From positions 466,263-530,262 of the forward strand of contig JYNZ01000003.1 in NCBI GenBank assembly GCA_001567355.1: a DNA stretch of 64,000 nucleotides, read 5' to 3'. The position numbers and the translations under genes are program-made. The stretch comes from a candidate division WS6 bacterium OLB20. Lineage in GTDB: Bacteria > Patescibacteriota > Dojkabacteria > B142 > OLB20. Within the stretch, counting starts at the first letter, position 1, and each line of letters begins with the position of its first letter. Under the pieces are notes generated by a model. It was not told where the DNA came from and ran no database searches. It saw only the letters and a program-made list of their open reading frames with translations. Below, piece after piece: positions 36,316 through 55,459 of this stretch.

Positions 36316-36826
36316 CCCTGTCCGCTATATCCCACCTGAAAGCCTGCCCCAGATTTTCACGGCAATAGAAGAGTACCTGCATCAGGAGAATGATCCTGTC
36401 GCCCATTACGCAAATGAACGCGATGGTTGCAGGCAGCTGGAGTCGGTATTAGAAAGAATTCAGGAAGATTATTATCCAGATTTCAATAGTAAAGCCACAT
36501 ATCTTTTTCTGTCCGTTAATCGCGGGCATTTCTTTTCCAATGGCAACAAGCGTCTTGCGGCAACACTTCTAAAGGTGTTTTATACATTGAACGATTATCA
36601 CGTTGATCCTGACTCCCTCCCTGAATTGATAATCAGAACAGATCACCACACGATTGATCTTACTAAAGGCGACTGGGATGCTACTTTCTTTAACGGCGAC
36701 GCTCAGATGATCTTCTTGTATGCAATCGCGGTTACTGTTGCAGACGAGCAGTTTCAAAACATCCAGTTTGATGACTGGAAGCTACTGGTGGAGAGGCTTT
36801 TGCAAGTGGTGCTCAAAAAGACATAG
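36308..36826 (+). CDS. doc: Doc (death-on-curing) family Fic-fold toxin
   Basis: HFFSNGNKRLA matches the Doc motif H-x-F-x-(D/N)-(A/G)-N-K-R. Confidence 0.7.
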   Translation: MADPVRYIPPESLPQIFTAIEEYLHQENDPVAHYANERDGCRQLESVLERIQEDYYPDFNSKATYLFLSVNRGHFFSNGNKRLAATLLKVFYTLNDYHVDPDSLPELIIRTDHHTIDLTKGDWDATFFNGDAQMIFLYAIAVTVADEQFQNIQFDDWKLLVERLLQVVLKKT

Positions 36827-37291
36827 CTACAACCTGTAGATGTATGCAACCGACGGTTCCGTTTCTGACGGACTGAGACCGGCATACAGTGCATTTGCAG
36901 CATCGTTGTCTGTTTCTGTGGCAACCCAGAGTTCTGAGCAAACATGTTCTCTCGCGATTTCCATTATATGTTGCATCATCGACCGGGCAACACCCTGTCT
37001 GCGGAAGGCTGCCTTCGTCTCTACCTCATCAACATACATTTCCTGCCCCCGTTCGTCAGTCTTTTTATGCAAGTAAGCTGTCAGCATGCCGGCGACCTCG
37101 CCATTGACATAGGCAAGCAGCAGAAAACAGTCGGGATCCTCGATGTACCTCTTCAGGTTTGCAGGGTCTTCTGTATGACCTTCGTCCTCCCAGCCATCTG
37201 CTGACAGATGCTTCATAACCTCATCGAGGGAATGTGTGTCAGGACGGATAAGCTGAATGCTGATTAGCGGTTTGCTTTGTAGATTGTCCAT
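36827..37291 (-). CDS. GNAT family N-acetyltransferase
   Basis: Acetyl-CoA binding motif RRQGVARSMMQHIMEIA (Q/RxxGxG/A). Confidence 0.7.
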   Translation of the reverse strand: MDNLQSKPLISIQLIRPDTHSLDEVMKHLSADGWEDEGHTEDPANLKRYIEDPDCFLLLAYVNGEVAGMLTAYLHKKTDERGQEMYVDEVETKAAFRRQGVARSMMQHIMEIAREHVCSELWVATETDNDAANALYAGLSPSETEPSVAYIYRL

Positions 37292-37797
37292 ATTGCCAGT
37301 GTATCTGAAGCAGTGATTTCCTCTTCTTTAATCATAGTATCGATCTCGTTCTCACTGAACCAGTGTGCTGTCATTCCTGATTCAGACTGCTCATGGCTGG
37401 TCTGAACTGGTTTGAGCTCTGTAGCTAAAAAGACATGAGAAATCTCTGCGATTCTGCGACGGTAAATGTGATGACCGCCAAGACGCCTGAGTGTGGCTGC
37501 CTCATAACCACCCTCTTCGATCAATTCCCTGCGTGCGGCTTGCTCTGGTGTCTCTCCAGCATCAATAAATCCACCGGGGAATTGCCACATCTCGACACCT
37601 ACAGGGTGATTATATTCCTTAACAAGCAGGATCTTTCCATCACTGTTTACCGCAACGGCATCTGCGCCGTCTGCTTTATTGAAAAACTTGAGATAGTGTG
37701 TGCGTTCGCCTGAAGGAAGCTCTACTTCATCCTCAAGCAGAGTGATCCTGGGGTGTTTGAACAGTTCTTTTGTGCTCAGTATCTTCCACATAATCAA
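37264..37797 (-). CDS. Nudix hydrolase (ADP-ribose pyrophosphatase-like)
   Basis: Nudix box FPGGFIDAGETPEQAARRELIEEGG. Confidence 0.75.
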   Translation of the reverse strand: MIMWKILSTKELFKHPRITLLEDEVELPSGERTHYLKFFNKADGADAVAVNSDGKILLVKEYNHPVGVEMWQFPGGFIDAGETPEQAARRELIEEGGYEAATLRRLGGHHIYRRRIAEISHVFLATELKPVQTSHEQSESGMTAHWFSENEIDTMIKEEEITASDTLAIWTIYKANR

Positions 37798-37830
37798 ATA
37801 CTTACAAGCTGAAATAGTATCACAACAATG

Positions 37831-38106
37831 TCATGGTTTTGCGCAGATTCCATCTGCACAGGTAAACCCCTCTTTGCAGTCACCTATATCCGGTCTGCAT
37901 GTTCCGCCCACTTCCACAGTATGGAACGCGGGGTTCTGCTCGCGCAGCTCCGAGCGCTGATTTTGTCCCTGGGCACTAAGAAATGCTAAAAGAATGACGG
38001 CACAGGCGACAAGCACAACTATCAAGGCAAGAGCGGGTAGCAGGAATTTTTGCATGGCATGTGAAAACTGATACCTGACTGTAGCAGATAGCAGCGACGA
38101 CCGCAC
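37831..38106 (-). CDS. Small secreted Cys-containing protein
   Basis: Signal/TM segment then a C-x6-C-x5-C tail. Confidence 0.3.
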   Translation of the reverse strand: MRSSLLSATVRYQFSHAMQKFLLPALALIVVLVACAVILLAFLSAQGQNQRSELREQNPAFHTVEVGGTCRPDIGDCKEGFTCADGICAKP

Positions 38107-38172
38107 CAGTCAATACTGGACAGGTATCACGGTCGGGTTTACTATGCAGATATAAGCTGTTGCTGAATTACC

Positions 38173-38445
38173 ATGGAGGAGAAGTTTGAAAACCAATGCC
38201 AGTCTTGCGGTATGCCGCTTCGTGGCGGCGCGGTTTCTGGTACTGAAGCAGACGGCAGCAAGAGCAGGATGTACTGCGAGATGTGTTACAAGGACGGTGC
38301 ATTCATTGATCCCGATATGACACTTGATGAGATGCGCCGTATGCTTGATGAGACTGTAGGCAGGGAAGGTCTTAAGGGTAAGTTTCTGGCATTTATGGGC
38401 AAGATGCAGCTGCCAGGTCTGAAACGCTGGAAAAGCTCAAAGTAA
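38173..38445 (+). CDS. Zinc-ribbon small protein
   Basis: CQSCGMPL...CEMC pairs of Cys. Confidence 0.4.
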   Translation: MEEKFENQCQSCGMPLRGGAVSGTEADGSKSRMYCEMCYKDGAFIDPDMTLDEMRRMLDETVGREGLKGKFLAFMGKMQLPGLKRWKSSK

Positions 38446-38453
38446 CGCGGGGA

Positions 38454-39113
38454 TCATCCGCTGCTGCCGTCACCCACTAGCGCTGTACAGGCTGTATACG
38501 GGATCAGGTCAAGATCCAGTGAGATACCATAGTCCGCCAGACATGATGGCAGCACTTCAAGATCAGTTGTTGCACCTGCAAAGCATGACTCGATCTGCTG
38601 CATCGTCTCGTCCATCATCAGCGTATAGTTGTACATGGCTTCAGGGTTGAACTTGCGGGCGTTAACGACCCGGTCAATTATCAGTTCGTTGTCATCACCC
38701 GAACGCACGACAAACAGTGCTGGTATCTCAGAGCTCATAGCCAGACCGGTATTGTTTGTGCCGATCCCCTCCTTAATGACAGTAAAGGCTACACCTTTAA
38801 GAAACGGCAGTCTGCGCTGCTGCATGATATCGTGTACATCGGGGATGGTGAGTACAATATCAGGATTGCTTCCTGATACAGAGCAGTTAAACAGTGAGGC
38901 ATAGTCATCTCCGGCATACCTGCGTGTCAGCATAGCAATCTCAGTCAGCTGCAGCGTATTGGCGCAGAGCATGTTCTGCGGTTTGAAAAAGATACTGTCA
39001 AGCCGGTGAAGGTAATCAAGCGCATCCTGATCGTAGCCCTGCGGAACATACAGACCCCTCGTATGGTCTTTAAATGGCGCCACATCAATCAGAGTTCTGT
39101 ATTCACAAGACAT
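38454..39113 (-). CDS. Hypothetical protein
   Basis: ORF only. Confidence 0.35.
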   Translation of the reverse strand: MSCEYRTLIDVAPFKDHTRGLYVPQGYDQDALDYLHRLDSIFFKPQNMLCANTLQLTEIAMLTRRYAGDDYASLFNCSVSGSNPDIVLTIPDVHDIMQQRRLPFLKGVAFTVIKEGIGTNNTGLAMSSEIPALFVVRSGDDNELIIDRVVNARKFNPEAMYNYTLMMDETMQQIESCFAGATTDLEVLPSCLADYGISLDLDLIPYTACTALVGDGSSG

Positions 39114-39341
39114 CGCTGATTATTTCAGTAGCACATATACGACAGTGACCGGGATGCAACCGAGCAGCAGCAGTATGCGACCGTATTGAAATTGCGTATG
39201 AAAATTGAACTATTATAGCTGGAGGTAACAGGGAGACAAGAGCCTGCGGATCCGAAGATCGTGCTTAGGATCCAGACATTCCATCAGACATGTCTCTCAC
39301 GAAGTGACGAAACCGCATGGAGCCGGTGCCCCACACTGACA

Positions 39342-40238
39342 CTAGGTATCTTCGGCCTCGTTGCTTGAACGCCCCTTAAGAAACTCCATCAATGCAAGAC
39401 GCGCAAAATCTTCAGCCTCCTCCTTCTTTCCATACTTGATCTTGCGCAGGTACGTCATGATGTCATTCATCTGTGATACCAGGATGTACTCCTCGTAATC
39501 ATCATCGGAGTCGCTGTAGCTGCTGCAGGCAACCATCAGCATGTCAAAGAATGTTTCCGAAAATGCCTTCTGCAGCTTGTCTCTAAACGCATTAAAACCC
39601 TCATTTGTCTGCCGCGCCGCAAGAAACACCTGCATAAACTCCCCTTCTTCATGTAACTGATCATACACTTCTGTCAGATACGCGAACGACCTGGCAAACT
39701 GTGTAAACGATGCTCCCCCGATAGCTGACTCTGAATGTACGCGGCGCAGGAGATACTCATACTGGAGAAACTTAACATACCCCTCCTCCAGAAACACTCC
39801 TGTCGTGTTTTCAAACGGCAGTGTATGCCTGACCATGATCCCTGTTGACTCCTCGCTGACTGTGTATCTGGGATTTGCATCTTTCTCGTCAGTGAGTCTT
39901 TTTACCCAGATATCCTGCCTGCCGGATTTATGACCTGCTTCATGCACGACATTCCCCTCATCATTCAGGGGTGAATCCGATGGTACCAGAAAGATCATTC
40001 CCGTCAGAGGATGAAAAAACGCAGGCGCTTTGACTCCGTACAGTCTGTCCCGGTCCTCTTCTGATATCACGATAAGCATATCCTGCGAATACTCTATGTC
40101 ACGCTCATGCAGAAAGTCAGCGACAGCAGCATGATCAAAATCCTTGTGCAGCAGTTCAGGTCTATGAAACTTGCGCAACTCCGCGATCTGGTCACTGGCA
40201 TCCACTCTGGCTAATATGTCTGGTGAGTCTGTGGTCAT
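39342..40238 (-). CDS. Hypothetical protein with an HExxH motif (possible minimal zincin)
   Basis: VVHEAGH is the only recognisable motif. Confidence 0.3.
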   Translation of the reverse strand: MTTDSPDILARVDASDQIAELRKFHRPELLHKDFDHAAVADFLHERDIEYSQDMLIVISEEDRDRLYGVKAPAFFHPLTGMIFLVPSDSPLNDEGNVVHEAGHKSGRQDIWVKRLTDEKDANPRYTVSEESTGIMVRHTLPFENTTGVFLEEGYVKFLQYEYLLRRVHSESAIGGASFTQFARSFAYLTEVYDQLHEEGEFMQVFLAARQTNEGFNAFRDKLQKAFSETFFDMLMVACSSYSDSDDDYEEYILVSQMNDIMTYLRKIKYGKKEEAEDFARLALMEFLKGRSSNEAEDT

Positions 40239-40361
40239 GATTAAAGCTAACAGATGGGTCCATTATACGGGATTCCTGAGATCGGGGTTTGCTGCTCATG
40301 CCGGTCAGAACGACCGGGCAGCTGCCGTGCACTGATACACCTGATCTGTGGCAGACGCCGG

Positions 40362-40994
40362 TTACACCCCGAGCACAACATGCCTGACACGCCCCATACC
40401 TGAGAGCTGTGACCTGGTAAGATGCGCGGAGCCTGCATAGACAAATGCCGTGCCGCCGTCTTTAAGGCGGTTACCCAGCACACTCATGACAGAACGTTTC
40501 ATTGCCCTGGAGCGCTCATTCAGCACAACCGAGTCAAAGTCCCGCTCATGCTGCTCTATTCTCCGTTTCAGTCCTGCAATAAACGGAGCGGCAATGCTGC
40601 CCAGTCCAAGTGAGACTGCTGCGTTGTACATCCCGATATCCTGCGACATTCTGTCAACCAGCCCTGCTGCCTGTCTGTACAAACCGGCATTCTCCCAGCC
40701 TGACAGTGTGACTGTACTTGTATCAACTTCGGCCATCTCGGGTACCCATGACCCCGACATACCGCCGCCAAACGGTTCGCCTTCTGTCAGGACAACGTCT
40801 CCCGCCTGCGGCAGAATGCCTAACGTGTTTGCGATTGCGCGCTGGTAGCCTTTGTCGTAGTGGTTGTCTGTACCCACAAACACCACATCCGCATCTTCAA
40901 GCGAACTGTTACCTCCTACGACATGCATCGGGACAGACTGTCTGGGGCGCTTAGCCTCGGGGACCTGATTGTGTGGACTGCTGTGAGCTTCCAT
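40362..40994 (-). CDS. Hypothetical protein, weak TraB/GumN(Tiki)-like pattern
   Basis: FVGTDNH near the N-terminus and FVYAGSAHL near the C-terminus resemble the GTxH / GxGHL motifs of that family. Tentative. Confidence 0.25.
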   Translation of the reverse strand: MEAHSSPHNQVPEAKRPRQSVPMHVVGGNSSLEDADVVFVGTDNHYDKGYQRAIANTLGILPQAGDVVLTEGEPFGGGMSGSWVPEMAEVDTSTVTLSGWENAGLYRQAAGLVDRMSQDIGMYNAAVSLGLGSIAAPFIAGLKRRIEQHERDFDSVVLNERSRAMKRSVMSVLGNRLKDGGTAFVYAGSAHLTRSQLSGMGRVRHVVLGV

Positions 40995-41234
40995 ACAGGT
41001 AACAGGTTTATATGTATCCGGGCAGGTGTTAGGGGTTAAAACGTTTGATGGGCGTCTGTATTACAAGGGAGAACATAGACTGGTGAGACTCTTGCGAAGG
41101 TGGTGGACAGTCTGATGTCGAATGCGAACCGGATCGTTAAAAGACTAAATCTGGTCATCCCCTTACTTAAAGCAGTACAATTGTAGTATAATCCAAAAGT
41201 TTACCCATCAGGTTAATTTTTTGTTACTATATAG

Positions 41235-41531
41235 ATGCAGGTTGAGTACGCAAGCAGAAAAGCCGAGAAGACGTTCAATAAGTACCTCAACGGTACTGAG
41301 TTTTCCAGCAAGATCGAACGGCGTATCCTTGAGTTAGAGGCAGCTCAAGACCTTTCACAAATAGATGCAATCAAGTCTCTACAATTGCATAAGCTTTCCG
41401 GCAAGAGGAAGGGACAAATGTCCATCGCCTGCAAAGGGAGTTGGAAAATAGTTTTTATTGCAAAAGTGGATTTTACTCAATATTCAGAAGTTACAGAGAT
41501 AGAGCTACTGGACTTCGTAGACTACCATTAA
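41235..41531 (+). CDS. higB: HigB-like (RelE/ParE superfamily) toxin
   Basis: LHKLSGKRKGQMSIACKGSWKIVFIAKV...ELLDFVDYH parallels HigB LHPLKGDREGYWSI..NWRITF...YEDYH. Confidence 0.65.
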   Translation: MQVEYASRKAEKTFNKYLNGTEFSSKIERRILELEAAQDLSQIDAIKSLQLHKLSGKRKGQMSIACKGSWKIVFIAKVDFTQYSEVTEIELLDFVDYH

Positions 41532-41534
41532 AAA

Positions 41535-42638
41535 ATGGGCATTAAGTTAGATACAACACAATTTATCATTCCCCCGGGCGAGACCATCAAAGAACAACTC
41601 GCTTATCTTGGCATGTCTCAAAAAGAACTAGCCACAAGAATGAACTACTCAGAGAAGGCTATTAGCAAGCTGATAAACGGAAAAGTTTCATTAACGACTG
41701 ACACGGCACTTGAACTAGAGAATATTTTTGGAATACCTGCAGTTTTTTGGATTAACCTTGATGCGAACTATCAACTACGTAAGAAAAGACAAGAGGATAT
41801 CACTGTATCTAAGAGCGAGATAGACATTGCGAGAAGATATAAGTGTTACGCGGAGATTTCCAATCGCGGGTATGTAAAGAAAACTAGCGACTGGCATCTT
41901 CGTGTTAAAGAACTCTGTCGCTTCTTTGGGGTTTCGAACTTAGGTCAAATTATGAAGCTCGATTATGGAGTAGCATTTAAACAAGCAAGTTCACGCTCAA
42001 TTGACTCATATTCAGTGCAATGTCTTCTAAGAATTGGAGAATTGGAAGCACAAGACATAAGTGTTCCCGATTTTAACAAAGAGGGATTAAAGGAACTTAT
42101 CCCCCAAATTAGGAGTCTAATCACCTTACCTATAGAAGAAGCAATTCAGAATTTACGAGTATTACTAAATTCTGTTGGTGTTAGACTCGTTTTGACTCCA
42201 TCGATCAGCAAAACGATGATTAATGGAGCAGTGAAGTGGTCAGATGACAGGCCAACAATACAAGTGACAGATTACAAGAAAGCTGTTGATATCTTTTGGT
42301 TTACAATTTTCCATGAGCTAGGACATGTTTTGCTTCATGGTAGAGGAAAAGGGAAAAGGTTCGTAGATACATACTCAAATTTATCAAGTAAAGAGAATAT
42401 TGAACTGGAAGCGAACCAATTCGCGCAGAATACGCTTATACCAGAAGATGCATTTAATGATTTCATTGAGAATGGTAGCTTCTATGAAGCTGATATTATA
42501 GGATTCTCAGCTGTTGTAGGTATTCCTGCATCCATCATCGCTGGGAGACTGGCTCACGACAAGAGTATTACTCAGTACGGATACAACTTTGCTCAAAAAT
42601 TCCGAACGAGTATCGATCTAACAGAGATAAATATCTAG
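41535..42638 (+). CDS. HigA-like HTH-XRE antitoxin fused to an ImmA/IrrE family zinc metallopeptidase domain
   Basis: N-terminal HTH (LGMSQKELATRMNYSEKAISKLINGK) and a C-terminal HEXXH motif FTIFHELGHVLLHG. Begins 4 nt after higB. Confidence 0.7.
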   Translation: MGIKLDTTQFIIPPGETIKEQLAYLGMSQKELATRMNYSEKAISKLINGKVSLTTDTALELENIFGIPAVFWINLDANYQLRKKRQEDITVSKSEIDIARRYKCYAEISNRGYVKKTSDWHLRVKELCRFFGVSNLGQIMKLDYGVAFKQASSRSIDSYSVQCLLRIGELEAQDISVPDFNKEGLKELIPQIRSLITLPIEEAIQNLRVLLNSVGVRLVLTPSISKTMINGAVKWSDDRPTIQVTDYKKAVDIFWFTIFHELGHVLLHGRGKGKRFVDTYSNLSSKENIELEANQFAQNTLIPEDAFNDFIENGSFYEADIIGFSAVVGIPASIIAGRLAHDKSITQYGYNFAQKFRTSIDLTEINI

Positions 42639-43372
42639 CAGATCGGATCATATCCCTCACAAGCGTCATACACATAGACATCATCGTATCTTTTCATTCC
42701 TACATACCCCTGAACCAACACTAAATATAGAACATCCTTATTTATCAACGGATTATTCCGAAATTGTCCAGATACATAATCATAAACATCTTCGTCCTCA
42801 GTAAACGGTCTCCAATGACTAATATAGATGATTCCTTTATCACCTTTCTTTCTCTTGCGATATTTCAATATTTGATTTTGAGCATCCTCAATACGGTCTT
42901 TCAGCCAACGTATACTTACAGCAGTCTCCTCTACTGAGGATTTTACCTCAGTGTAGAAAGTTACCCCGTTACACTCACTCTTTAGATCGGGTGTTTTTCC
43001 ATTTTCTTCAGGGATAAACTCAATAAATTCATGCCCCATCTCCAGCAGCCTATGCAAGGCTTCGAATTCAGAGGTGGCCAACCTAAAATCCTTTTGTGAC
43101 ATCCTCCTAGCTTTATCAAGCCACGGCGAGATATCAATATCATTATCGAGAATGTTTCTCACCCTTTCTTCATTTACCTCCACTTCATGACGTCCTGTTA
43201 GAGCTATTAGGTCTTGCAACTTCAGCCAATTATCAGCCTTGCGTCTTATTAACTGCACTTCGTCATAATATGGGATAAGAGATGTTTCTTTCCCAATATG
43301 AGTGAATATGAAAGTATTAGGATCAAAGTTTGAGAGTGTAAACACTTGACCCTTTATTGAATTCTTCGGCAT
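42635..43372 (-). CDS. Hypothetical protein with a PD-(D/E)xK-like motif (possible nuclease)
   Basis: TPDLKSECNGVTFYTEVKS matches PD-x(n)-E-V-K; no other support. Confidence 0.3.
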   Translation of the reverse strand: MPKNSIKGQVFTLSNFDPNTFIFTHIGKETSLIPYYDEVQLIRRKADNWLKLQDLIALTGRHEVEVNEERVRNILDNDIDISPWLDKARRMSQKDFRLATSEFEALHRLLEMGHEFIEFIPEENGKTPDLKSECNGVTFYTEVKSSVEETAVSIRWLKDRIEDAQNQILKYRKRKKGDKGIIYISHWRPFTEDEDVYDYVSGQFRNNPLINKDVLYLVLVQGYVGMKRYDDVYVYDACEGYDPIC

Positions 43373-43410
43373 AACATTATACGAAGCTATAACTCCTCCC
43401 TTGTAACTAC

Positions 43411-43737
43411 CTACCCATTCTGAACATGCTCGTCATAATGCTCAAGCCTATTTCGAGCTGAACGCTTGTGAATCGAACTAGACTCTTTGACCCCAATAAG
43501 TGAGGCCACTGTTTCTTCATATGGTGCACTCTTGCTATTCTGGGGATTTGCTTTTAGCAACTTCGAGACCATAGCGCAATGCGTCAAAAAAGAATGAATC
43601 GACGAAAAAACTAAATCTGTATTTCTAGCCACCTTAGGCTCGAGGCTCTCAAAAGAACGTATTGCAAATGTACATTGTGTGGAAATCTCCCTAACTAGGA
43701 ATTCTTTCCATAAGGCTTCTTTCTGTTTGTTACTCAT
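43411..43737 (-). CDS. Hypothetical small protein, upstream partner of 42635..43372
   Basis: ORF only. Confidence 0.3.
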   Translation of the reverse strand: MSNKQKEALWKEFLVREISTQCTFAIRSFESLEPKVARNTDLVFSSIHSFLTHCAMVSKLLKANPQNSKSAPYEETVASLIGVKESSSIHKRSARNRLEHYDEHVQNG

Positions 43738-43957
43738 ATGTTAAGATTAATAATTCCAAGGGGTTAATATCCCAAGAAGTCCCTCAGTACTCTTTTATGA
43801 GGTTGTAACAAAAATCGCACCAACTCTTCGAGGTCACAACAGGAACAGCTCAATCTCTGTATTTACAGTTTTACCATACCCTTGCACGTGACCCAATGCT
43901 CACAGGGTTACCCTAGATCGTGCTATTGTGTAAGATGTACACATATTATAACCCACC

Positions 43958-44793
43958 ATGAACATACTTAACGCACTAATCAACCTTAGCAAGAGAGACA
44001 CATACAAGATAGACGAGCTATACGAAGGTAATAACCGGATTAATAATGTTGGAGATGCACTGGAGTATTTCATCAAGGATGGGTTCATTAACGAGGAAGT
44101 TTCAAGTAATGAACAAAGAGACAAGAAGTATAGTGAGGCATTCTCTTACCTTGGAAATAGTTCTAATCCACCCGATTTTATGCTTAGAGGTGGTGATGCA
44201 TTTGAAGTAAAAAAAGGTAAAACTCATTACCTCTAACCTAGCTCTAAATAGTTCGCATCCAAAGGACGTACTTTACAAAGATGACCCAAAGATTTCATCA
44301 AGCTGTCGAGAGGCCGAAGGTGGGCAATGGGATAAAAAAAGACTTGGTATATGCTGTTGGAATAGTTAACGAAACAGTTGAAAAAGTATTGTTTGTATAT
44401 GGCGATTGCTATTCTGCGAACAAGGATACCTATGTAAGAGTTAGTAATATGATAAGAAGTGGAATTATATCAATAGAGGGGGTTGAGTTCGCAGAAACTT
44501 CAGAGTTAGGAAGGGTAAATAAGGTTGATCCCCTAGGAATTACTTACTTAAGAATGAGGGGGATGTGGCACATAGAGACTCCATATAAACTGTTCAAAGA
44601 TCAACTAATAGAGCTAGATGCACTCGATAAAAGAATAATCTCGATAATGAAAAAGACTAAGTTTGATGAACTTATAACTGATGAATTAAGGCAGAGTTTA
44701 GAGAAGAATAATACAATCAAAACATGCAGGTTAAGAGACCCCAATAACCCTGCTATACTATTTGACTCAATTATCATTCACTCAAACACATGA
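43958..44793 (+). pseudogene. Type II restriction endonuclease (partner of the HaeIII-like methyltransferase), split into two ORFs
   Basis: PD-(D/E)xK motif PDFMLRGGDAFEVKK in ORF 43958..44236. The C-terminal part is in ORF 44281..44793 in another frame, with stops in both frames between them. Its stop overlaps the MTase start (ATGA). Confidence 0.45.
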
Positions 44794-45782
44794 AAATAGC
44801 ATCATTATTTGCAGGCGCAGGGGGTTTAGACAAAGGTTTTGAAAACGCAGGGTTCACTGTTGAGTGGGCGAATGAATACGACAAAACTATTTGGGAAACA
44901 TTTCGTAAGAATTTTCCTAAAACTCGTCTAGATGAAAGATCAATTCGTGATGTAGATAGTCAGGAAATAAAATCCTTTGGACACTTCGATGGTTTAGTAG
45001 GTGGTCCACCATGCCAAAGCTGGAGTCTTGCCGGGTCAATGAAAGGTATTGAAGATCAACGAGGGTCTCTTTTCTACGAATACCTCAGAGTACTTAGTGA
45101 TATTGAACCCAAGTTTTTTTTAGCTGAGAACGTCCCGGGGTTGATAAGTAAAAGACACATTGGTGAATATAAAAAAATTGTTGCAGAGTTTGAAAAACGA
45201 GGATACCAAGTTACAGAAGGTAAGGTAAATGCTTCAGATTATGGAGTTCCCGAAGATAGAGAGAGGGTAATTATTGTTGGTTTTCATAAAGACTTAAATA
45301 GAAAATTCATTTTTCCGGAGAGGACTCACAATAAGTTAAAGAAAGTCACATTAAAACAGGCAATAGGTGATCTTCCTGAGCCTGTTGCAGCTCTCCCAGG
45401 TAACAATGCGAACTCTAACCTCAAGATACCAAACCATGAATACTTCACTGGAGCATTCTCATCTAGATTCATGTCACGAAATAGAATTAGAGGTTGGGAT
45501 GAGCAGGCATATACAATCGAAGCAAGTGGAAGACATGCAAAACTACACCCTTCTGCACCGCCAATGAAGAAGATCAATAAAGATGAATGGATATTTGAGA
45601 AAGGAAGCGAACATAAATATCGAAGGTTAAGCATCAGGGAGAGTGCTAGGATTCAGACCTTTCCAGACAATTTTATATTTCACTACAGCAAAGTAAATGA
45701 TGGTTATAAAATGGTCGGGAATGCAGTGCCTGTAAAATTAGCAGAAGCGTTCGCAAATGAGATTTTAAAGCAGATTGCTTAA
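44790..45782 (+). CDS. DNA (cytosine-5)-methyltransferase, M.HaeIII-like (probable GGCC specificity)
   Basis: Motif I FAGAGGLDKGF, motif IV GGPPCQSWSLAG, motif VI FLAENVPGL. Length 330 aa with extended similarity to M.HaeIII as recalled (ANEYDKTIW..., PNHEYF..FMSRNR.., FIFHY...DGYKM.GNAVPV). Confidence 0.85.
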   Translation: MKIASLFAGAGGLDKGFENAGFTVEWANEYDKTIWETFRKNFPKTRLDERSIRDVDSQEIKSFGHFDGLVGGPPCQSWSLAGSMKGIEDQRGSLFYEYLRVLSDIEPKFFLAENVPGLISKRHIGEYKKIVAEFEKRGYQVTEGKVNASDYGVPEDRERVIIVGFHKDLNRKFIFPERTHNKLKKVTLKQAIGDLPEPVAALPGNNANSNLKIPNHEYFTGAFSSRFMSRNRIRGWDEQAYTIEASGRHAKLHPSAPPMKKINKDEWIFEKGSEHKYRRLSIRESARIQTFPDNFIFHYSKVNDGYKMVGNAVPVKLAEAFANEILKQIA

Positions 45783-45846
45783 GATTATTGGGTAACTTGT
45801 TGTCCCAAGTAGCTACCACGTTCTACAGCAGACTTTTGTTCAACGA

Positions 45847-45945
45847 TCAATTTGCCTGCCCCTCCCCCTTTTCGTAGGTTTCATCTTCATACTCCTTAGA
45901 AAACTCTATTGCTCTTTTTCTTATTTCATTCCAACTAAGGGCCAT
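45847..45945 (-). pseudogene. 32-aa N-terminal remnant of an MmeI-family (type IIL) restriction-modification enzyme
   Basis: Minus-strand translation MALSWNEIRKRAIEFSKEYEDETYEKGEGQAN then stop. MmeI-family proteins begin MALSWNEIRRKAIEFSKRWEDA.... Confidence 0.55.
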
Positions 45946-46305
45946 TGTACTTTTTTTGCTTTAATTAATTCTTAAGTCAACGGAAAGGCGAATGCCTTAT
46001 TCTACAGCATTTTACCCGAAAGAACATGCCACAAAACTATGAAGATCGACACGTTGCAACAACATACAAGATTTCCGCTGGTATTTCATACCACCTAATA
46101 GACGGCCCTAGTTAGTACATAAAAAAAACAAACTCTCAGACAACAGCGCCTCGTATTCAGAAGCACACCAAGCCCTACCAAAAATAAAGACGTCCGCCTA
46201 TCAAGAAATAAATGTCAACCAACTAGACCATTTTAGTCTACCTGGTAGACACATACATTCTATCCCCACTATAAGTTATACTCATACATATCAGCCATCA
46301 AATAC

Positions 46306-47178
46306 ATGCCAGACCTCCATACGAAATCAATTTCTTTAGACAACCTTTTGGACTCAATCAAGGAATTGATGAACCTACGAGAATCAGAGTATGCTGATTC
46401 GATTGATTCCTTCTTGGGTCTACCCCTTGAGACGAAAGAGGTAATCATTATCAGCCCCCAAAAACACTTTGTCGATAAACTTTATAGATACTACGGATCA
46501 CTTCAAGAGTACCCTACACGCGTCCAAGACAAGTTGGCTCTAAGAGGTGCTCAAGCACAAATTGAAGAGCCACTATTTGTTCACCACTCACCAGTGCTAG
46601 TTACTGACTCAGTATTCACACAACGAGTAATTAATAAATTGAAGGATTTAGAGTTTGTGATAAATGCAGGCCAACGAATACTTGACTACATCGACATTGC
46701 GGGTAAACAAGTCCTGAAAGATAACCTAGCAGAATTCGCTATCCCCGGTTCAACAATTGACTCCGTTGCGGTGACACAGATCACATTTAATTACGAAAGG
46801 TTTCTTATACAGCGATCCACAACCTCACTGCTCTACCCTATGATCAAGAGTCATCAGTTTAAGCTGCTAGCTAATGGCACATTTTATCTTCGAGTACGTG
46901 ACGATTGGAGACTAGGTATAAATACTTCAATCACAGATAAATATGGAAACCAATCCAATAGCAGTAAACTCTTGATTCATCTTCTTCAAGAAAAGAACAG
47001 AATGCCTCAGGTCAATAGATTCCCCATCAAACTACTGCAACGTGAGCTAGGAATTGCTCCAAAACAGATACTCTCGGCGATGGCATCAATAAACAGGAGT
47101 GTCAGTGAATACAAAGCCAAAGAGTTGATAGTCCTGAAGCGTGACAAAGAAGATATAGTGTTTATTTTGCGAAATTGA
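46306..47178 (+). CDS. Hypothetical protein (island cargo)
   Basis: ORF only; AT-rich. Confidence 0.35.
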   Translation: MPDLHTKSISLDNLLDSIKELMNLRESEYADSIDSFLGLPLETKEVIIISPQKHFVDKLYRYYGSLQEYPTRVQDKLALRGAQAQIEEPLFVHHSPVLVTDSVFTQRVINKLKDLEFVINAGQRILDYIDIAGKQVLKDNLAEFAIPGSTIDSVAVTQITFNYERFLIQRSTTSLLYPMIKSHQFKLLANGTFYLRVRDDWRLGINTSITDKYGNQSNSSKLLIHLLQEKNRMPQVNRFPIKLLQRELGIAPKQILSAMASINRSVSEYKAKELIVLKRDKEDIVFILRN

Positions 47179-47222
47179 ATCAGCTGCCTAGCTGATCAGA
47201 GCTGAAGTAATAGTCTCTGGGT

Positions 47223-47387
47223 ATGAAAGTACCCAAAGAAGAGAAACAAATAATTACAGTAAAGGAAGCTAGGAAACTTCTCGGTATTGACGCTAAGCAC
47301 CTAGACGATGAAACAATTGAAGCAATTGTCGACTCTTTAACTCAACTTGCTCATATACAAGTTAATATCAGACAGGAGGGACAGTAA
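47223..47387 (+). CDS. 54-aa putative HTH DNA-binding protein upstream of the recombinase (possible Xis/RDF or regulator)
   Basis: MKVPKEEKQIITVKEARKLLGIDAKHLDDETIEAIVDSLTQLAHIQVNIRQEGQ. Below the ORF-track cutoff. Confidence 0.3.
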   Translation: MKVPKEEKQIITVKEARKLLGIDAKHLDDETIEAIVDSLTQLAHIQVNIRQEGQ

Positions 47388-47437
47388 TTTTTCGATGGCT
47401 GAAGATACTGTTCTTCCTGTTTGTTATTGCAGCCATC

Positions 47438-49040
47438 ATGAATAAGAAAGTAATCGGTGTTGGATACATAAGAGTATCAACGACCAAGCAGGCCGACGAA
47501 GGCGTCAGCCTTGATGTCCAACGCCAAAAAGTAATATCCCTCCTTAAAGAGCAAGGGTGTCAAACGATCAAAATTTATGCAGACGAAGGCAAGAGTGCTC
47601 GTGACGAAAAGGTCGAGACCAATTTCTTGAGGCAATTGATTACTCAACGACTAATAGTGTCCCTTATTTCGCCTGCTACGACCCAACAAGGTTTGCCCGC
47701 AACTCCGTCCAATCACTTGAGTATTTTCAAACACTTCGTGAAGCTGGCACAAAATTGATCTTTGTTGAACAAAAATTTGATGATAGTCCATTAGGTAGGT
47801 TTCTCTTTAACCTTTACTCTGGCCTTGCACAACTACAGAGTGAGGAGCAGGGGCAGAAAATACAGAACTCCATAATTGAGAAGCATAGAAGAGGGGAATT
47901 TCCGCATATGTCACCACCGGGTTATCGGAACATCCGCAGACCTGATGGTCGTGCTGATATTATCATCGAGAAAAAGAATGCCGATCTCTAAAACATGCGT
48001 TTAGAGGATATCTGTCTGACGAGTTCTATCATTTGAGTGACGTTGTGGATTTTTTGAGACGCAATAAATTCAAACCTTATTATTCACGAAAGAGAAAATT
48101 TGAGAGCATAACCGACTCTTCGATAAGTAGAATCTTCAGACAACCGTTCTATGCTGGGTACTTTTACAGCAAAGCGTTAAAGAAAGAGATACCACATGTA
48201 TATCCAACCATAATTACAAGAGAAGAGTTTAAGTTGATTCAGGATAAAATGAGAGGCAAACGCAAACAAACCAATCACTATAAAAAACGTAATCCTGATT
48301 TCCCACTAAGAGCTTCAGCAAGATGCTCAGTATGCGGCAACAAAGTTAGGGGACATAACTCAAAAGGTAGAACTGAGACCTATCCATACTATGCATGCCA
48401 CAAAACACCAGACTGTATAAAGTCTATTCCTACCGAAGATGTACATACCCAGTTTATCGAAAGTCTATCAGCAATCTCGCAGAGTACTGGTAAGCTTCGA
48501 CTATTCACAGAGATACTAAGACGCGTAATTGAACAGGAAAAACAAAATGACAATCGACGGGAGATACTTAGTGTGAGGCAAAGAAGCCTCGAAAAGAAGC
48601 TAAATAACATTACTGACAAAATACTAAACCTAACAAATCAGTCCGTGCTAAAGCGATTAGAGGAAGATTTTGAAGCAAGAACAAATGAGCTTAGCGAAGT
48701 AAAGAGGCAACTTGAGACAATCTCAAAGGAGAATTGCGAACCACCCAGACTTGAAGACGTCACCCTTCTTTCTAATCCAAGTGCGATATGGAAATCGGCA
48801 GGTATTAAAGAAAAAATCGATTTCACAAAGTGGTTATTCCCTGATGGTTTTGAAATAACCCCGAAAAAACAATTGCGAACCGGTGAGATCAATATAGTTT
48901 ACAAGGCTTTAGGGGCTGTTGAGTCTAATGATTCTCAACTGGTGGAGATGGCGGGAGTTGAACCCGCGTCCAGAGAAGCCAAACACATGCAGTATACAGA
49001 TATAGCCATCCTGTTTCAGACGGATCGCGATAAAGGATAG
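47438..49040 (+). pseudogene. Large serine recombinase (resolvase/invertase N-domain + recombinase domain + zinc ribbon + coiled coil), broken into three ORFs
   Basis: The catalytic Ser context GVGYIRVSTTKQADEG is in 47438..47758. The end of the resolvase domain and PPGYRN are in 47755..47991. The recombinase domain, C-x2-C...C-x5-C zinc ribbon and coiled coil are in 48033..49040. Frame changes fall near 47750 and 47985 (A5 run). The last ~100 nt are antisense to the tmRNA 3' end. Confidence 0.7.
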
Positions 49041-49392
49041 CGTAAACCGCGAAACGACTGTACGCTTTTACTTTGCTCTAACAGGCGTACAAGCCACTAG
49101 AGTCTGCACTTTAGCTTGTTTTTCTCCCACGGGACCCCGCTAAAGGAGAGTTTCCATGAAAGGCTTAAATCGCGAGCCGAAGCTCAAGCGAATTTAGGCA
49201 GCGATGTTGAGGGCAAAGTTGCCGCTAAGGGCGAGCTTTACGTTCTCAACAAAGCTTGATACTTTGTTTTTGACGCTTATTTAGTCATTCCGGTTTGATC
49301 CGGAAGGAATCTGCTTACTTACGGCGAAACAGACTAAACAACACCGATCTGCCACACGTATCTGGTATTTCCTGTCGAATCCGGTCATCCCC
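48940..49392 (-). ncRNA. ssrA: tmRNA (SsrA)
   Basis: Minus-strand 5' end GGGGATGACCGGATTCGACAGG matches the canonical tmRNA 5' end (GGGGcuGAuucuGGAUUCGACgGG). The 3' end GGACGCGGGTTCAACTCCCGCCATCTCCACCA has a T-arm near-identical to E. coli tmRNA. The acceptor stem has a G3:U70 wobble. An internal tag-like frame ends ...GNFALNIAA then TAA. Confidence 0.8.
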
Positions 49393-49638
49393 GAAAACAC
49401 CTCCTCCACCTGGCTCGTCGGGCTTGCCTCCAGAATGAGGCACTAGACCCTGCCGTAAGAGAAGATGTTTGCGGGAATATCGACAGATTGTAAATGAGCT
49501 GGACATACAGTATAGCATATTTCTGCAGGATTTTAAGGGAATGTATATGCAGGGCAAGGCGATGACCTCAAACACAGACCGGTTGTATGGACGTTACGCG
49601 TAAATACCGCTAAAATTCTGACATATCTCACACCAACC

Positions 49639-50286
49639 ATGGAAAATCAGTCAAAGCCCGAATCGGGTAATTCCCGTAAAGTTTTAATTATTGCCGGCAT
49701 CGGCTGTATTCTGCTTGCTGTCTGCTGTGCAGCTGTCGTGCTTGGTGCAGCAGCTATCTCTACGCAGATTGCGCGCGACCTGAGCGACACTGATGTTGAG
49801 GTGACAGGCCCTGACGGGACAGACGGCTCACCGACACCATCCCCCACCCCCGAAGCAGGATCGGTTAAAAACCCTTACAAAAGTACACAGCAGGTGAAGA
49901 TAGACAACGTCACCTGGAAGATTGAGTCGGCAGCTGACCTTGGCGGCCGGATCAAGGCTGATGCGCAGTATCTTGATGACTGCGTTTCGGAAGGGTCAAA
50001 GTTTATCAAGGTGGTGTTTTCTGTGACAAATGGTACTGACAGCAGTGTCAATCTTTTCAACATCGAGCTCGCAGACCTTGAGGATAGACGATTTTCGGAA
50101 TACAACCGCATTTACAGCTGCGTCCAGGAGTACACCATCTTTGACGAGCTTAATCCTCAGCTGTCAAAGACATATACAGCGTATTTTGAAGTGCCCGGTG
50201 ACAAGCCGGTGCAAAACCTGATGCTGGTTGTGTCTGACCTCAGCTTCTTTTCGCCTGAAGAACGCTACATCAACCTGGGGCTCTGA
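49639..50286 (+). CDS. Membrane-anchored DUF4352-like protein
   Basis: N-terminal TM, a PT linker, then KIDNVTWKIE...KFIKVVFSVTNGTDSSVNLF, typical of DUF4352. Confidence 0.5.
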   Translation: MENQSKPESGNSRKVLIIAGIGCILLAVCCAAVVLGAAAISTQIARDLSDTDVEVTGPDGTDGSPTPSPTPEAGSVKNPYKSTQQVKIDNVTWKIESAADLGGRIKADAQYLDDCVSEGSKFIKVVFSVTNGTDSSVNLFNIELADLEDRRFSEYNRIYSCVQEYTIFDELNPQLSKTYTAYFEVPGDKPVQNLMLVVSDLSFFSPEERYINLGL

Positions 50287-50342
50287 CCAGACAAACAGCA
50301 ACTCAACCTTTCTTTCTTTATTCGGTTTGAGTAGACTGAACT

Positions 50343-52154
50343 ATGCAACGCAGAATTCTGATCGGCATATTGTTTGCACTGACCGTCGTAGTCGGTGCGG
50401 GTGCCGTTTACATTGGGATAACCCTACAGCAGCAGCCAGATACAACCCCGGAGGATACATCAGCCGCGCCGGGAGACCTGCGCTGGGAGGATGGTGTCTG
50501 TAATATCGGCATTGTCACAACCCATACTGATGTAATTGCAAACAATTATGCAGGCTACGGTGTCTCGCGCGAGGCACTGCAGCCCTATCTTGATGCAGGG
50601 TATGTCGACAACGTCCGCACCATCGACGGCCGTTCTGCTGCCGCAACAGACTTCTCGGACCTTGACATCCTGTTTGCAGTTGACGGTAATCTGACCAATC
50701 TGCCTGCAAACCTTTCGCCATCTGACCCGGGTCAGTTTGCTGACCAGTACACATATCCCCCCAACCATTACATCCGTTCTACTGCGCCATCACAGGAACT
50801 CTCAACAAACATTATCAATAACTGGGCTGACGGAATGAGCCTTGTCATTACTGGTGACAACGGCGTCTTTACATCACCGGGCACACGCGGTCGCGGTCCG
50901 GGAGATTTTGCCAACGGTTTTTCGGGTCCGCTTGCCAACACCGTATCATCGCTGATCGGCAACCCCTATGAGTATATTGTTGAAAGCCAGACACAGGCAT
51001 GGCTGCACGTATACAGCGGCACGTTCGGTCTGGCGGACAATAATGCGATCAACAACTCAAACATCCGCTTTGCAGCAAACGTAACCGGCAATCCTGTACT
51101 TGAGGGTGCACAGCACTGGTTTGACGACCCCTGGATCCTGCGGTCAGAACTTGGTCCAGCAGAGCCTGTCGGTCCCGAACCGTTCCGCGGGCTTGGCACA
51201 CCGGGTAACATCCAGTTTAACGGCGCGGGGACAATCGGCGCATCATGCGTGACATCAAGGCCTTTGTATGATTTCTGCCAGGTGCCCAATCCAGACGGGA
51301 GCGGCGAGATGTGTCAGGTGATCAATCACTGTCTCCTGGTGTTTGCACCAGGCAGCGAGACTGTAGGCATCCCCAATGTCGGCGGAACGTCACGCGGCTT
51401 TCTTGTTGTAGACCCCAACGGAGGCATCCCGACACAGACCTCACTGCCGAACATGATCACGGCCCTGCCCGACTGCAATCCGTCTGACACACCGACCCCG
51501 ACACCAACCAGTACACCTAGCAGTACTCCGGTAAACACGCCGTCACCCACAACCACACCTAGCCCGACGCCGACATTCACACTGGCGCAATGCGGTGCAG
51601 AATGTTCAACATCAGATGACTGCGAGGGAGCACTCGCCTGCAACGACCATGACGGTGACGGCACAAGCACCTGCGTAAATGCGAGCTGTACTGCAGGATC
51701 AACAGCCATCTGCAGTGCGGACGGATGCGTTGTCGGTGATCCGCCGCCGAGTACGACACCTACAGCAACGCCCACTCCGACACCCACTCCATCAGTGACT
51801 GTTGTCATCACCGATACACTTGAGTGCTACGAGACCGGATGCGATACACCTGGCAACACCTGCGTTACAGGACTCACCTGTATCAGCAACCGCTGCGTCA
51901 GTGCCGCCTACCCTGACAGCCCCGACTGCAAACCGGGTACTGTCACCACACTGCCCCCGACAGCACTGATCAGCGACGAGGCCGACCGCGTACTGATCGC
52001 AATGATACTGATCTCCGGAGGATTTGCAGTGTATGTGTCAGGCATCGGACGCTATGCAGGCCAGTACCTGTGGAAAACAGCCCGCGGCTCAGTTCTGCGC
52101 ACTCAGCGCGACTATGAACAGGATGCTGCAGAAAGCATCCACCAGGAGGAATAA
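50343..52154 (+). CDS. Large modular surface protein: signal/TM, globular domain, Pro-Thr linkers, Cys-rich modules, C-terminal TM anchor
   Basis: TPTPTPTSTPSSTP and TPTATPTPTPTPS linkers flank CGAECSTSDDCEGALACNDHDGDGTSTCVNASC... and CYETGCDTPGNTCVTGLTCISNRC modules. Final TM VLIAMILISGGFAVYVSGIG. Confidence 0.5.
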   Translation: MQRRILIGILFALTVVVGAGAVYIGITLQQQPDTTPEDTSAAPGDLRWEDGVCNIGIVTTHTDVIANNYAGYGVSREALQPYLDAGYVDNVRTIDGRSAAATDFSDLDILFAVDGNLTNLPANLSPSDPGQFADQYTYPPNHYIRSTAPSQELSTNIINNWADGMSLVITGDNGVFTSPGTRGRGPGDFANGFSGPLANTVSSLIGNPYEYIVESQTQAWLHVYSGTFGLADNNAINNSNIRFAANVTGNPVLEGAQHWFDDPWILRSELGPAEPVGPEPFRGLGTPGNIQFNGAGTIGASCVTSRPLYDFCQVPNPDGSGEMCQVINHCLLVFAPGSETVGIPNVGGTSRGFLVVDPNGGIPTQTSLPNMITALPDCNPSDTPTPTPTSTPSSTPVNTPSPTTTPSPTPTFTLAQCGAECSTSDDCEGALACNDHDGDGTSTCVNASCTAGSTAICSADGCVVGDPPPSTTPTATPTPTPTPSVTVVITDTLECYETGCDTPGNTCVTGLTCISNRCVSAAYPDSPDCKPGTVTTLPPTALISDEADRVLIAMILISGGFAVYVSGIGRYAGQYLWKTARGSVLRTQRDYEQDAAESIHQEE

Positions 52155-52175
52155 CTTACCCGGAGTAACAGTACA

Positions 52176-53165
52176 TCAGACGCGGACGATCTTCATGGCG
52201 TCCTTGACTCTGCCTATGACATCAGCTGCGGTGTTCCTGCCCTTTTCGGTGCCGGCGCGCAGGATCTGCATCAGTGTGTCTTCGTTATCATATTTTGAGC
52301 GGCGCTCTCTGATCGGTGCAAGGAATGTCTCAAGCGCAGCAAGCAGCTTCTGCTTCACTTCAACATCTCCGACTGTTCCCTTGCGATAGCGTTCCTTCAG
52401 ATCATTGACCTCGTCAGTATCGGGATTGAACGCGTCATGGTAGATAAAAACAGGGTTGCCCTCGACGGTTCCGGGATCTGTAGCCCGGATCCGGGACGGA
52501 TCCGTGTACATGCTCATGATCTTCTGCTTCAGATCTTCAGATGACTCACTCAGGTAGATTGCATTATTGAGCGATTTGCTCATCTTGGCGTTATTGTCTG
52601 TTCCGACAAGCCTGCCAAACTGACTGACCTTGGCCTCGGGCTCTACAAGCGTGTCTCCGTAGATACCGTTAAATTTCCTGACAAGCTGACGTGTCACTTC
52701 GATATGCGGCACCTGGTCTTCTCCGACCGGAACAAGGTTGGCGTCATATACAGAAATGTCAGCAGCCTGAGATACCGGATACATGAAAAACCCGAGCGGA
52801 ACGCTTTCGTCCATGCCCTTCTGCTGCATCTCTGTTTTGACAGTAGGATTGTGTCCGAGTTTATTGACCGAGATCAGATTTGCCAGGAACACCGTCAGTT
52901 CAGCCGTCTGCGGTACAGCAGACTGCAGAATAAACGTTACTTTTTCGGGGTCGAGTCCTGCAGCAATATTGTCCAGCAGCACCTGCAAAACGTTTGTCCG
53001 CACCTTGTCGGGATTATCAAAGTTATCAGTCAGCGCCTGCACATCCGCGATCAGAATGTATGTATCGTAATCGTTTTGAAGCTCAACACGTTGTGACAGC
53101 GAGCCAACCCAGTGCCCGAGATGTAGCGGTCCGGTTGGTCTGTCTCCTGTGAGAATGCGTTGCAT
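52176..53165 (-). CDS. trpS: Tryptophan--tRNA ligase
   Basis: HIGH-class motif TGPLHLGH and KMSKS; about 330 aa from ATG at 53165. Confidence 0.8.
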   Translation of the reverse strand: MQRILTGDRPTGPLHLGHWVGSLSQRVELQNDYDTYILIADVQALTDNFDNPDKVRTNVLQVLLDNIAAGLDPEKVTFILQSAVPQTAELTVFLANLISVNKLGHNPTVKTEMQQKGMDESVPLGFFMYPVSQAADISVYDANLVPVGEDQVPHIEVTRQLVRKFNGIYGDTLVEPEAKVSQFGRLVGTDNNAKMSKSLNNAIYLSESSEDLKQKIMSMYTDPSRIRATDPGTVEGNPVFIYHDAFNPDTDEVNDLKERYRKGTVGDVEVKQKLLAALETFLAPIRERRSKYDNEDTLMQILRAGTEKGRNTAADVIGRVKDAMKIVRV

Positions 53166-53229
53166 AGTCTGTTTGTAACTGCCAGCATTGTACCACTTTT
53201 CTTGAGGACTAATTCGGGTACAATGGGTC

Positions 53230-55191: not shown

Positions 55192-55251
55192 GACGCTTGT
55201 GCCGAGGTCCCCTGTGCAGCTGCAGGAAGGCCATCCACCATTTAGGTATTA

Positions 55252-55440: not shown

Positions 55441-55459
55441 GCAGTAGCACGTATCGATA

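Follow-up and report, generated by a model that had tools for sequence, protein, structure and literature searches.

The window analyzed here is a 64-kb stretch of DNA from candidate division WS6 (Dojkabacteria) bacterium OLB20, and all coordinates below are positions within it. It contains a block of foreign composition that is probably a fossil: a degenerate serine-recombinase genomic island of ~7.83 kb, lying at the 3′ end of ssrA, the gene for transfer-messenger RNA (tmRNA). An earlier reading of this DNA, referred to below as the original prediction, had described a tmRNA-targeting island with defence and addiction cargo. A foreign ~7.8-kb element with a decayed recombinase and cargo of that kind does lie at the tmRNA 3′ end, but the targeting itself stands less firmly; as searches turned up neither an empty site nor a circular form, we infer it from where the block lies, from a repeat of 7 bp and from the recombinase next to it.

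Between ~41.1 and 48.9 kb the GC content is 0.36–0.42, as compared with 0.49–0.56 outside, and it recovers at the tmRNA. In 1-kb bins, nowhere else in the window do eight bins in a row have a GC content of 0.42 or less, and overall GC is 39.3% for the island and 51.1% for the remainder. GC at third codon positions (GC3) is 0.29–0.49 in island open reading frames (ORFs) versus 0.546 ± 0.056 in long host ORFs (n = 48). The dinucleotide signature of the island lies at a distance of 130 from that of the host, for which equal-size chunks average 26 and never exceed 41. These three measures confirm the abrupt drop in base composition first placed at about 41.2–49.0 kb, and the GC and codon-usage plot called for at that time is non-uniform in both GC and GC3, setting the block off from its surroundings.

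The island occupies 41108–48939, the 7,832 bp between two identical copies of a 7-bp direct repeat, TGGTGGA. The left copy (41101–41107), seen by inspection of the sequence, falls at the step in GC content and is the candidate recombination core and left boundary. The right copy (48940–48946) forms the last bases of the tmRNA gene, whose RNA ends in ...UCCACCA, the reverse complement of TGGTGGA; it marks the right boundary of the island, and the right edge of the low-GC block falls exactly at this gene terminus. A repeat search found no internal attachment-site (att)-like repeats within the block. The tmRNA gene, which is the presumed integration target (48940–49392, minus strand), is complete. 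It was identified by ARAGORN, with a predicted tag ending in ...ALNIAA*, and it matches Rfam RF00023 along its full length (113.1 bits, gathering score 47, model positions 1–374 of 374), which bears out the tmRNA reported earlier beside the island. At 453 nt the tmRNA is long, and compared with the Rfam consensus it carries an insertion of ~50 nt near 49010–49065; the ARAGORN tag prediction, at 26 residues, is also unusually long.

The recombinase gene lies at the tmRNA-proximal end of the block (47438–49040, plus strand) and is a large serine recombinase pseudogene with all domains present. As originally described, it is spread over three ORFs (47438–47758, 47755–47991 and 48033–49040), across which Resolvase, Recombinase and zinc-ribbon matches are distributed. 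Reading in three frames revealed exactly two 1-nt frameshifts, in A-runs at 47607–47610 and 47971–47975; the gene is otherwise complete, and both lesions, which deprive it of an uninterrupted reading frame, are the same in an independent assembly. The repaired protein of 501 residues gives single continuous matches to Resolvase (PF00239, positions 2–144 of 145, 85 bits), Recombinase (PF07508, 3–101 of 102) and Zn_ribbon_recom (PF13408). The gene also matches the PHROG 95 integrase family and carries the catalytic motif YIRVSTTKQ. No match to a tyrosine integrase (Phage_integrase) was found in the island, and its sole recombinase is of the serine type.

With the large serine integrases of phages and integrative and conjugative elements (A118, TP901-1, Bxb1 and phiC31 type; PHROG 95), the island enzyme shares the Resolvase domain with its YxRVSTxxQ motif, the Recombinase domain, the zinc ribbon, a C-terminus of coiled-coil length and a size of ~500 residues. 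It differs from them in sequence, with ~25% identity at most to the integrases of GenBank phages over 86–94% of its length, in its two frameshifts and in crossing the att junction. The last 33 codons of its frame (48940–49040) are antisense to the 3′ domain of the tmRNA; in a circularized element this C-terminal tail would become 29 different codons from the island left end. No close relative of the recombinase was present in IMG/VR, and Joint Genome Institute (JGI) metagenomes yielded a single match, at 27% identity, with no tRNA or tmRNA nearby.

With these features in mind, we propose that the island began as a circle, acquired from a donor of lower GC content, that recombined with the chromosome at, or within a few bases of, the ...TCCACCA terminus of ssrA. 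The catalyst would have been the large serine recombinase at the tmRNA-proximal end, whose ORF crosses the junction, and the tmRNA gene would have remained intact after integration. Two single-base indels in A-runs would later have disabled the recombinase and locked the element in place. Its cargo would consist of stacked defence and addiction modules: a pair of genes resembling components A and B of the PD-lambda-2 system, a fusion effector, a GGCC-type restriction-modification (R-M) system and an MmeI-type enzyme. What we observed directly are the lesions, the junction sequences, the identities of the genes and their foreign composition; that integration took place, which enzyme catalyzed it, how decay proceeded and what the products do are inferred. 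We reconstructed attP as …TTCTCAAC-TGGTGGA-CAGTCTGATG… and attB as …TTGCGAAGG-TGGTGGA-GATGGCGGG…; the predicted empty-site junction is …CTCTTGCGAAGG-TGGTGGA-GATGGCGGGAGTTG… and the predicted circle junction is …GATTCTCAAC-TGGTGGA-CAGTCTGATGTCG….

The arrangement resembles that of Islander/TIGER-class islands, such as CP4-57 at ssrA of Escherichia coli, in which a foreign block likewise abuts an intact tmRNA 3′ end, with an integrase at the tmRNA-proximal end, a short repeat of the gene 3′ terminus at the far end and accessory or defence cargo. In contrast to these islands, the OLB20 element carries a large serine recombinase instead of a tyrosine integrase, is fossilized, resides in a member of the candidate phyla radiation (CPR), and is flanked by a 7-bp repeat rather than by a displaced 3′ fragment of tens of bases.

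Several observations weigh against the proposal. Serine integrases are rarely found at tRNA or tmRNA genes (14/297, or 4.9%, versus 44.5% for tyrosine integrases), and the authors of that TIGER survey described such usage as previously unreported and needing proof (PMC7192596). The island is a candidate case of a serine, not a tyrosine, recombinase at a tmRNA gene, a usage that is rare and lacks experimental proof. The flanking repeat is short, at only 7 bp, and outside this core the inner-left arm does not significantly resemble the tmRNA 3′ arm (p ~0.05). Simple integration at the 3′ end does not account for the stretch at 41148–41162, which reproduces the tmRNA 5′ end in 14 of 15 positions. 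Searches of GTDB, JGI metagenomes and IMG/VR, and exact-protein look-ups, yielded no allele lacking the island, no attP circle and no related element. On the side of the cargo, the HigB-like call for the first gene of the PD-lambda-2-like pair falls under the Pfam threshold, with no match to PADLOC PD-Lambda-2_A at E ≤ 0.1, and component C of that system is absent: there is no third co-oriented gene, and the next gene is convergent and unrelated.

The search for an empty site used the neighboring tryptophanyl-tRNA synthetase gene, TrpS. Its best GTDB matches, from Patescibacteria (WWE3, Dojkabacteria, Collierbacteria and others), are only 62–65% identical, so OLB20 has no close relative among the species representatives, and these relatives show no tmRNA synteny. 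A flanking 215-residue protein had no match in JGI metagenomes, nor did the reconstructed attP junction in IMG/VR. Exact-protein look-ups returned island-bearing contigs only. Proteins of this region are catalogued, by exact sequence, as hypothetical proteins TR69_WS6001000888, TR69_WS6001000889 and TR69_WS6001000894 of OLB20. An attP arm mimicking the tmRNA arm at a 5-bp offset was considered and rejected, as the similarity was not significant, and enrichment of an AGACTG motif around the junctions was not distinctive.

The copy of the tmRNA 5′ end belongs to a tmRNA-like scrap (41108–41162, minus strand; repeat family D2) which lies just inside the left end and runs into the TCCACCA repeat. 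On the tmRNA strand the scrap opens with GGGGATGACCAGATT (41148–41162), the 14/15 match mentioned above, and its gapped alignment with the tmRNA scores 3.3 standard deviations higher than shuffled sequence, a score reached by 1 shuffle in 500 and by none of 412 other island windows. A structured RNA or tmRNA fragment at this position was rejected, since the scrap has no Rfam match and no stable fold (z = 0.5).

Gene replacement would account for the scrap in another way. An element-borne tmRNA (48940–49392) would have landed at or in a resident tmRNA gene, which then decayed to the 62 nt at 41101–41162; the island would then continue rightward past 49392, and the tmRNA now in use would be foreign. 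The main support for such an event is the copy of the tmRNA 5′-terminal 15-mer, on the same strand and exactly at the composition boundary. To this can be added the rarity of the alignment score among shuffles and island windows, the TCCACCA in which the scrap terminates, and a precedent, a tmRNA-encoding element in the tmRNA gene of Rhodobacter (cited in PMC7192596). However, the middle of the scrap is unaligned and gives neither an Rfam or tmRNA signal nor a fold, and no right-hand junction is visible past 49392. Moreover, both the tmRNA (48% GC) and the spacer at 49.4–49.6 kb are host-like or ambiguous in composition, and a clean internal deletion of ~390 nt, sparing both termini, would be needed. 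We consider gene replacement improbable.

The block could also be a composite: a defence islet downstream of ssrA, assembled through separate gains and deletions, in which the recombinase is just a further decayed passenger or goes with only a portion of the block. Regions beside tRNA and tmRNA genes are known hotspots, and the mixed gene orientations, the mosaic of unrelated modules, the large deletion of an MmeI-type gene and the fact that IMG/VR and JGI metagenomes yielded no relative of the entire element would all fit this account. It is countered by the uniformity of GC and GC3 over the whole block, by the single pair of boundary repeats with no att-like repeats between them, and by the presence of only one recombinase, located exactly at the junction. 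We give the composite a slim chance.

A single integrated island, as proposed above, would since have decayed extensively. The lesions in the block comprise five 1-nt frameshifts and one large deletion. The original prediction had the island fixed by recombinase decay; the recombinase is indeed frameshifted twice, but the decay is much wider. A Logan assembly of a separate and much later sequencing run (SRR29904086) matches the window with 100% identity over 36306–48969 and 48942–60286, and all three independent observations of the locus carry the island with identical sequence. The A7–T8 runs of host genes and of the methylase occur without disrupting the frame, and ORFs 150 codons or longer take up 68% of the island as compared with 84–85% of the host. 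Given the identical independent assembly, the in-frame host runs and the low ORF coverage, the decay is specific to the island and not an assembly artefact. That the frameshifts are artefactual or reversible phase switches, with the endonuclease, recombinase and fusion nuclease working in part of the population, is very unlikely: all five lesions are 1-nt changes in A-runs, two of them in A7 tracts of a type that phase-varies in R-M genes of other bacteria, but three of the five tracts are only 2–5 nt long, the endonuclease and recombinase would each need two simultaneous corrections, and both the independent assembly and the in-frame A7–T8 runs elsewhere speak against it.

The island is a clean example of a defence-laden island decaying in a very small CPR genome. 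Its nucleases and integrase would have died first, through single-base slips, and the methylase and a toxin-antitoxin-like pair persist, a pattern to be expected if toxic functions go first and protective or addictive ones stay. Two contigs of the SRR29904086 assembly, one from the host side and one containing the island and its left flank, stop inside the tmRNA 3′ end, at 48942 and 48969, within 28 nt of each other. An insertion polymorphism at the tmRNA 3′ end was rejected as the reason, since the partner contig crosses the left junction unbroken, and the break is best explained by conserved tmRNA 3′ k-mers common to other species.

Among the cargo, one frameshifted gene on the minus strand (42635–43737) is of some interest. 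It had been taken for two unknown genes (42635–43372 and 43411–43737), and these proved to be the halves of a single gene, ancestrally ~368 residues long, which encoded a helical domain of ~175 residues followed by a C-terminal PD-(D/E)xK domain. The 108-residue ORF (43411–43737) has 33 homologues, mostly of 170–185 residues, and aligns solely with their first ~100 residues. Upstream of its ATG, the frame of the 245-residue ORF (42635–43372) carries on the same family (...EWVGSYKGGVIASYNVMPKNSIKGQVFTLSNFDPNTFIFTH...RRKADNWL). A profile built from the homologues only matched one minus frame at positions 2–101 (125 bits) and the adjacent frame at positions 101–169 (35 bits), and the two matches are contiguous in both profile and genome coordinates. 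An ancestral gene of ~368 codons has therefore been divided in two by the loss of one base near 43417–43420.

The nuclease half (residues 68–224 of the 245-residue ORF, the numbering used here) has a sole homologue, P0003, among 1.84 billion cluster representatives. The two are 37% identical; P0003 retains GHE, KTPD and TEVKSS, and D129, E142 and K144 are invariant. An AlphaFold model of this half, built from the two sequences, is of medium confidence, with a mean predicted local distance difference test score (pLDDT) of 66, 75–88 in the core, and a predicted template modeling score of 0.67. The order of its elements is helix 93–111, strand 115–119, strand 130–134, strand 137–146, helix 154–172 and strand 179–186, or alpha-beta-beta-beta-alpha-beta, in which D129 falls at strand 2 and the E142-x-K144 motif on strand 3. 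The structure prediction that had been suggested for 42635–43372 thus returned the core expected of its PD-(D/E)xK-like motif, and the assignment of a PD-(D/E)xK nuclease fold to the C-terminal half is supported by the modeled fold and by residue conservation in P0003. P0003 (217 residues) is encoded on short, low-GC contigs at loci L083 (972–1625) and L084 (1975–2628), where its neighbors are a 105-residue ORF resembling a four-cysteine zinc ribbon, a 213-residue unknown ORF and a convergent Xre-type helix-turn-helix (HTH) gene. The 105-residue gene, which lies upstream of P0003, was considered as a conserved partner of the nuclease and rejected, as it is unrelated to the 108-residue ORF.

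The core, and the placement of D...ExK on strands 2 and 3, are shared with PD-(D/E)xK effectors of defence systems (HamA of Hachiman, NucC, SduA of Shedu and Cap4) and with XisH and CdiA-CT, and the neighborhood of defence genes likewise recalls HamA, NucC, SduA and Cap4. The island nuclease has no sequence-level relation to any of these six proteins; its family has two known members. Unlike the known effectors, it is fused to an uncharacterized helical domain instead of a known sensor, and it is frameshifted.

The model of the ~175-residue family is a helical bundle with a small sheet (pLDDT 90), for which no specific structural or profile match was found in Pfam, PADLOC or PDB. The motifs SSIHSFLxHC and RNxLEHYD are invariant in the family, and the island copy carries SSIHSFLTHC and RNRLEH. 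Within the second motif, R89-N-x-L-E-H94 is invariant across 34 sequences and fits the Rx4-6H pattern that HEPN domains carry on a four-helix bundle, with no Pfam or PDB profile match. Members were found in six independent contexts, all of which are defence-island-like: directly after GajA and GajB of Gabija (E = 1e-205 and 1e-216); after the cyclase and NucC effector of a cyclic-oligonucleotide-based antiphage signaling system (CBASS), adjoining a serine recombinase; beside Mrr_cat and a PDC-S39-like protein; beside a NERD protein; near ParB-methylase and S24 genes; and near TaqI R-M genes. The genes lie at L096/L097 (4001–4552), L098 (4001–4522), L088 (5001–5558), L091 (5001–5534), L095 (4001–4558) and L085 (6001–6528), in genomes of low GC content (32–45%). 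The serine recombinase at L098 is only 22% identical to that of the island.

The ~175-residue proteins constitute a candidate undescribed defence-island family, and the product of the fusion gene is a candidate single-polypeptide defence effector, now frameshifted. The fusion suggests that the family works with a nuclease; if this is true, the in-frame joining to a rare nuclease would reveal its working partner. A bolder proposal, that the family is an undescribed anti-phage component, a sensor or regulator coupled to a DNA- or RNA-cutting effector, and, separately, that the element is a natural example of a large serine integrase targeting a tmRNA 3′ end in a CPR bacterium, is tentative and, taken as a whole, rather unlikely. 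The unannotated cargo genes had been singled out as the best place in the window for a new defence module. The relatives of 43411–43737 beside Gabija and CBASS favor that choice, but the copy here is broken and a further unannotated protein, of 290 residues, has no relatives. The most useful lead is the uncharacterized ~175-residue family itself, recurring beside known defence systems, rather than the broken copy in OLB20.

To the right of the fusion gene lie the remnants of a type II R-M system. An NgoPII/HaeIII-type (GGCC) endonuclease pseudogene (43958–44793, plus strand), read in three frames, contains two 1-nt frameshifts, in A7 tracts at 44209–44215 and 44334–44340. Its fragments match RE_NgoPII at positions 2–88 and 125–248, and repair gives a single match (2–248 of 262, 298 bits). 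It is followed by an intact C5 cytosine DNA methyltransferase of 330 residues (44790–45782, plus strand), which matches DNA_methylase (PF00145, 3.5e-91, 306 bits, positions 1–324 of 324) and PADLOC MTase_II (5.7e-111), and in which motifs I, IV, VI and X read FAGAGG, PPCQ, ENV and GNAVP. Pfam matches and frame repair confirm the HaeIII-like system with a split endonuclease and an intact methyltransferase that had been called at the outset. With the endonuclease inactivated by two frameshifts, only the methylase can be active, and on sequence grounds it is now an orphan. The order of an RE_NgoPII endonuclease and then a C5 methyltransferase, the stop codon of the one overlapping the start codon of the other, is that of NgoPII/HaeIII systems, from which the island differs in its inactivated endonuclease; recognition of GGCC would follow from family membership.

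GGCC is under-represented in the host part of the window (1–41099 and 49393–64000): a maximal-order Markov model predicts 158 sites and base composition 237, but 93 are observed. CCGG, GCGC and CGCG show no depletion there. Within the island (41100–48939) GGCC is undepleted (9 observed, 8.5 expected). The scarcity in the host suggests long exposure to GGCC restriction.

A second restriction enzyme is represented by an N-terminal remnant of 32 codons (45847–45945, minus strand), found by reading six frames. As first proposed, it is of the MmeI type (type IIL): the peptide opens with MALSWNEIRKRAIEFSKEYED... and, in a phmmer search against PDB, matches residues 1–28 of 5HR4 (E = 5.9e-6) before reaching a stop. 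A full enzyme of this type is a fused endonuclease-methylase polypeptide of ~900 residues with a target-recognition domain; here the remainder of the gene is deleted, and the flank contains no further ORF.

At the left end of the island, two intact genes on the plus strand form the toxin-antitoxin-like pair. The first (41235–41531, 98 residues) is of the HigB/RelE-like toxin type. The original call of a HigB-like toxin is borne out by PHROG 3066, 'toxin of TA system' (6.4e-10), but not at the Pfam threshold, as HigB-like_toxin scores 24.8 bits against a cut-off of 27 bits. The second (41535–42638, 367 residues) fuses an Xre-type HTH domain to an M78 (ImmA/IrrE) metallopeptidase, as had been recognized, with matches to HTH_3 (3.8e-10) and Peptidase_M78 (3.2e-15) in Pfam, to PD-Lambda-2_B in PADLOC (6.1e-34, profile positions 60–378 of 402) and to the HigA antidote family in NCBIfam (2.4e-16); a HELGH motif is present. 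In the PD-lambda-2 system of E. coli, B is toxic when on its own and is neutralized by A, and a third gene, C, is required for defence (Vassallo et al. 2022, PMC9519451). The island pair shares the order of a HigB-like gene followed by an Xre-HTH gene with a C-terminal peptidase, but it lacks the P4-antitoxin-like component C and its A gene misses the PADLOC A model. In the absence of C, the pair is A/B-like and not a full member of PD-lambda-2. It is probably a toxin-antitoxin or abortive-infection pair that would also stabilize the island.

Two ORFs remain between the MmeI-type remnant and the recombinase. The first (46306–47178, plus strand) is intact, encodes 290 residues and has an island-like GC3 of 0.40. 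Earlier listed as unknown, it is an ORFan: only the protein itself was found among 5.8 billion proteins, and there was no match in Pfam, PADLOC, NCBIfam, PHROG, PDB or, by tblastn, in phage and plasmid DNA. The second, of 54 residues (47223–47387, plus strand), lies just upstream of the recombinase and has no significant family match; the HTH assigned to it in the original prediction is unsupported, with no HTH family returned by searches of profile hidden Markov model libraries. As a guess, the two may be element-maintenance or directionality genes. Such searches had been recommended for the unknown proteins; like the 290-residue protein, the ~175-residue family matched nothing in Pfam or PADLOC. 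Nearly all of the earlier gene calls were right.

Other features of the window lie outside the island. To its left, three consecutive minus-strand genes (38454–40994; 219, 298 and 210 residues) have host-like GC and GC3 and no Pfam match. To the right of the tmRNA, a 603-residue protein (50343–52154) combines an N-terminal membrane segment with long linkers rich in Pro, Thr and Ser (…TPTPTPTSTPSSTP…) and modules rich in Cys; it adjoins the 215-residue protein mentioned above, which has a similar PT-rich linker, and neither has a Pfam match on record. An isolated 1-kb dip in GC (0.418) at 22001–23000 covers an ORF of 221 residues (22386–23051, minus strand) which has no Pfam match and adjoins an M23 peptidase gene. 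Finally, a Fic/DOC-family ORF of 172 residues (36308–36826) coincides with a local GC dip (0.44–0.45) and precedes GNAT and NUDIX genes encoded on the opposite strand; it may be a small, separate acquisition.

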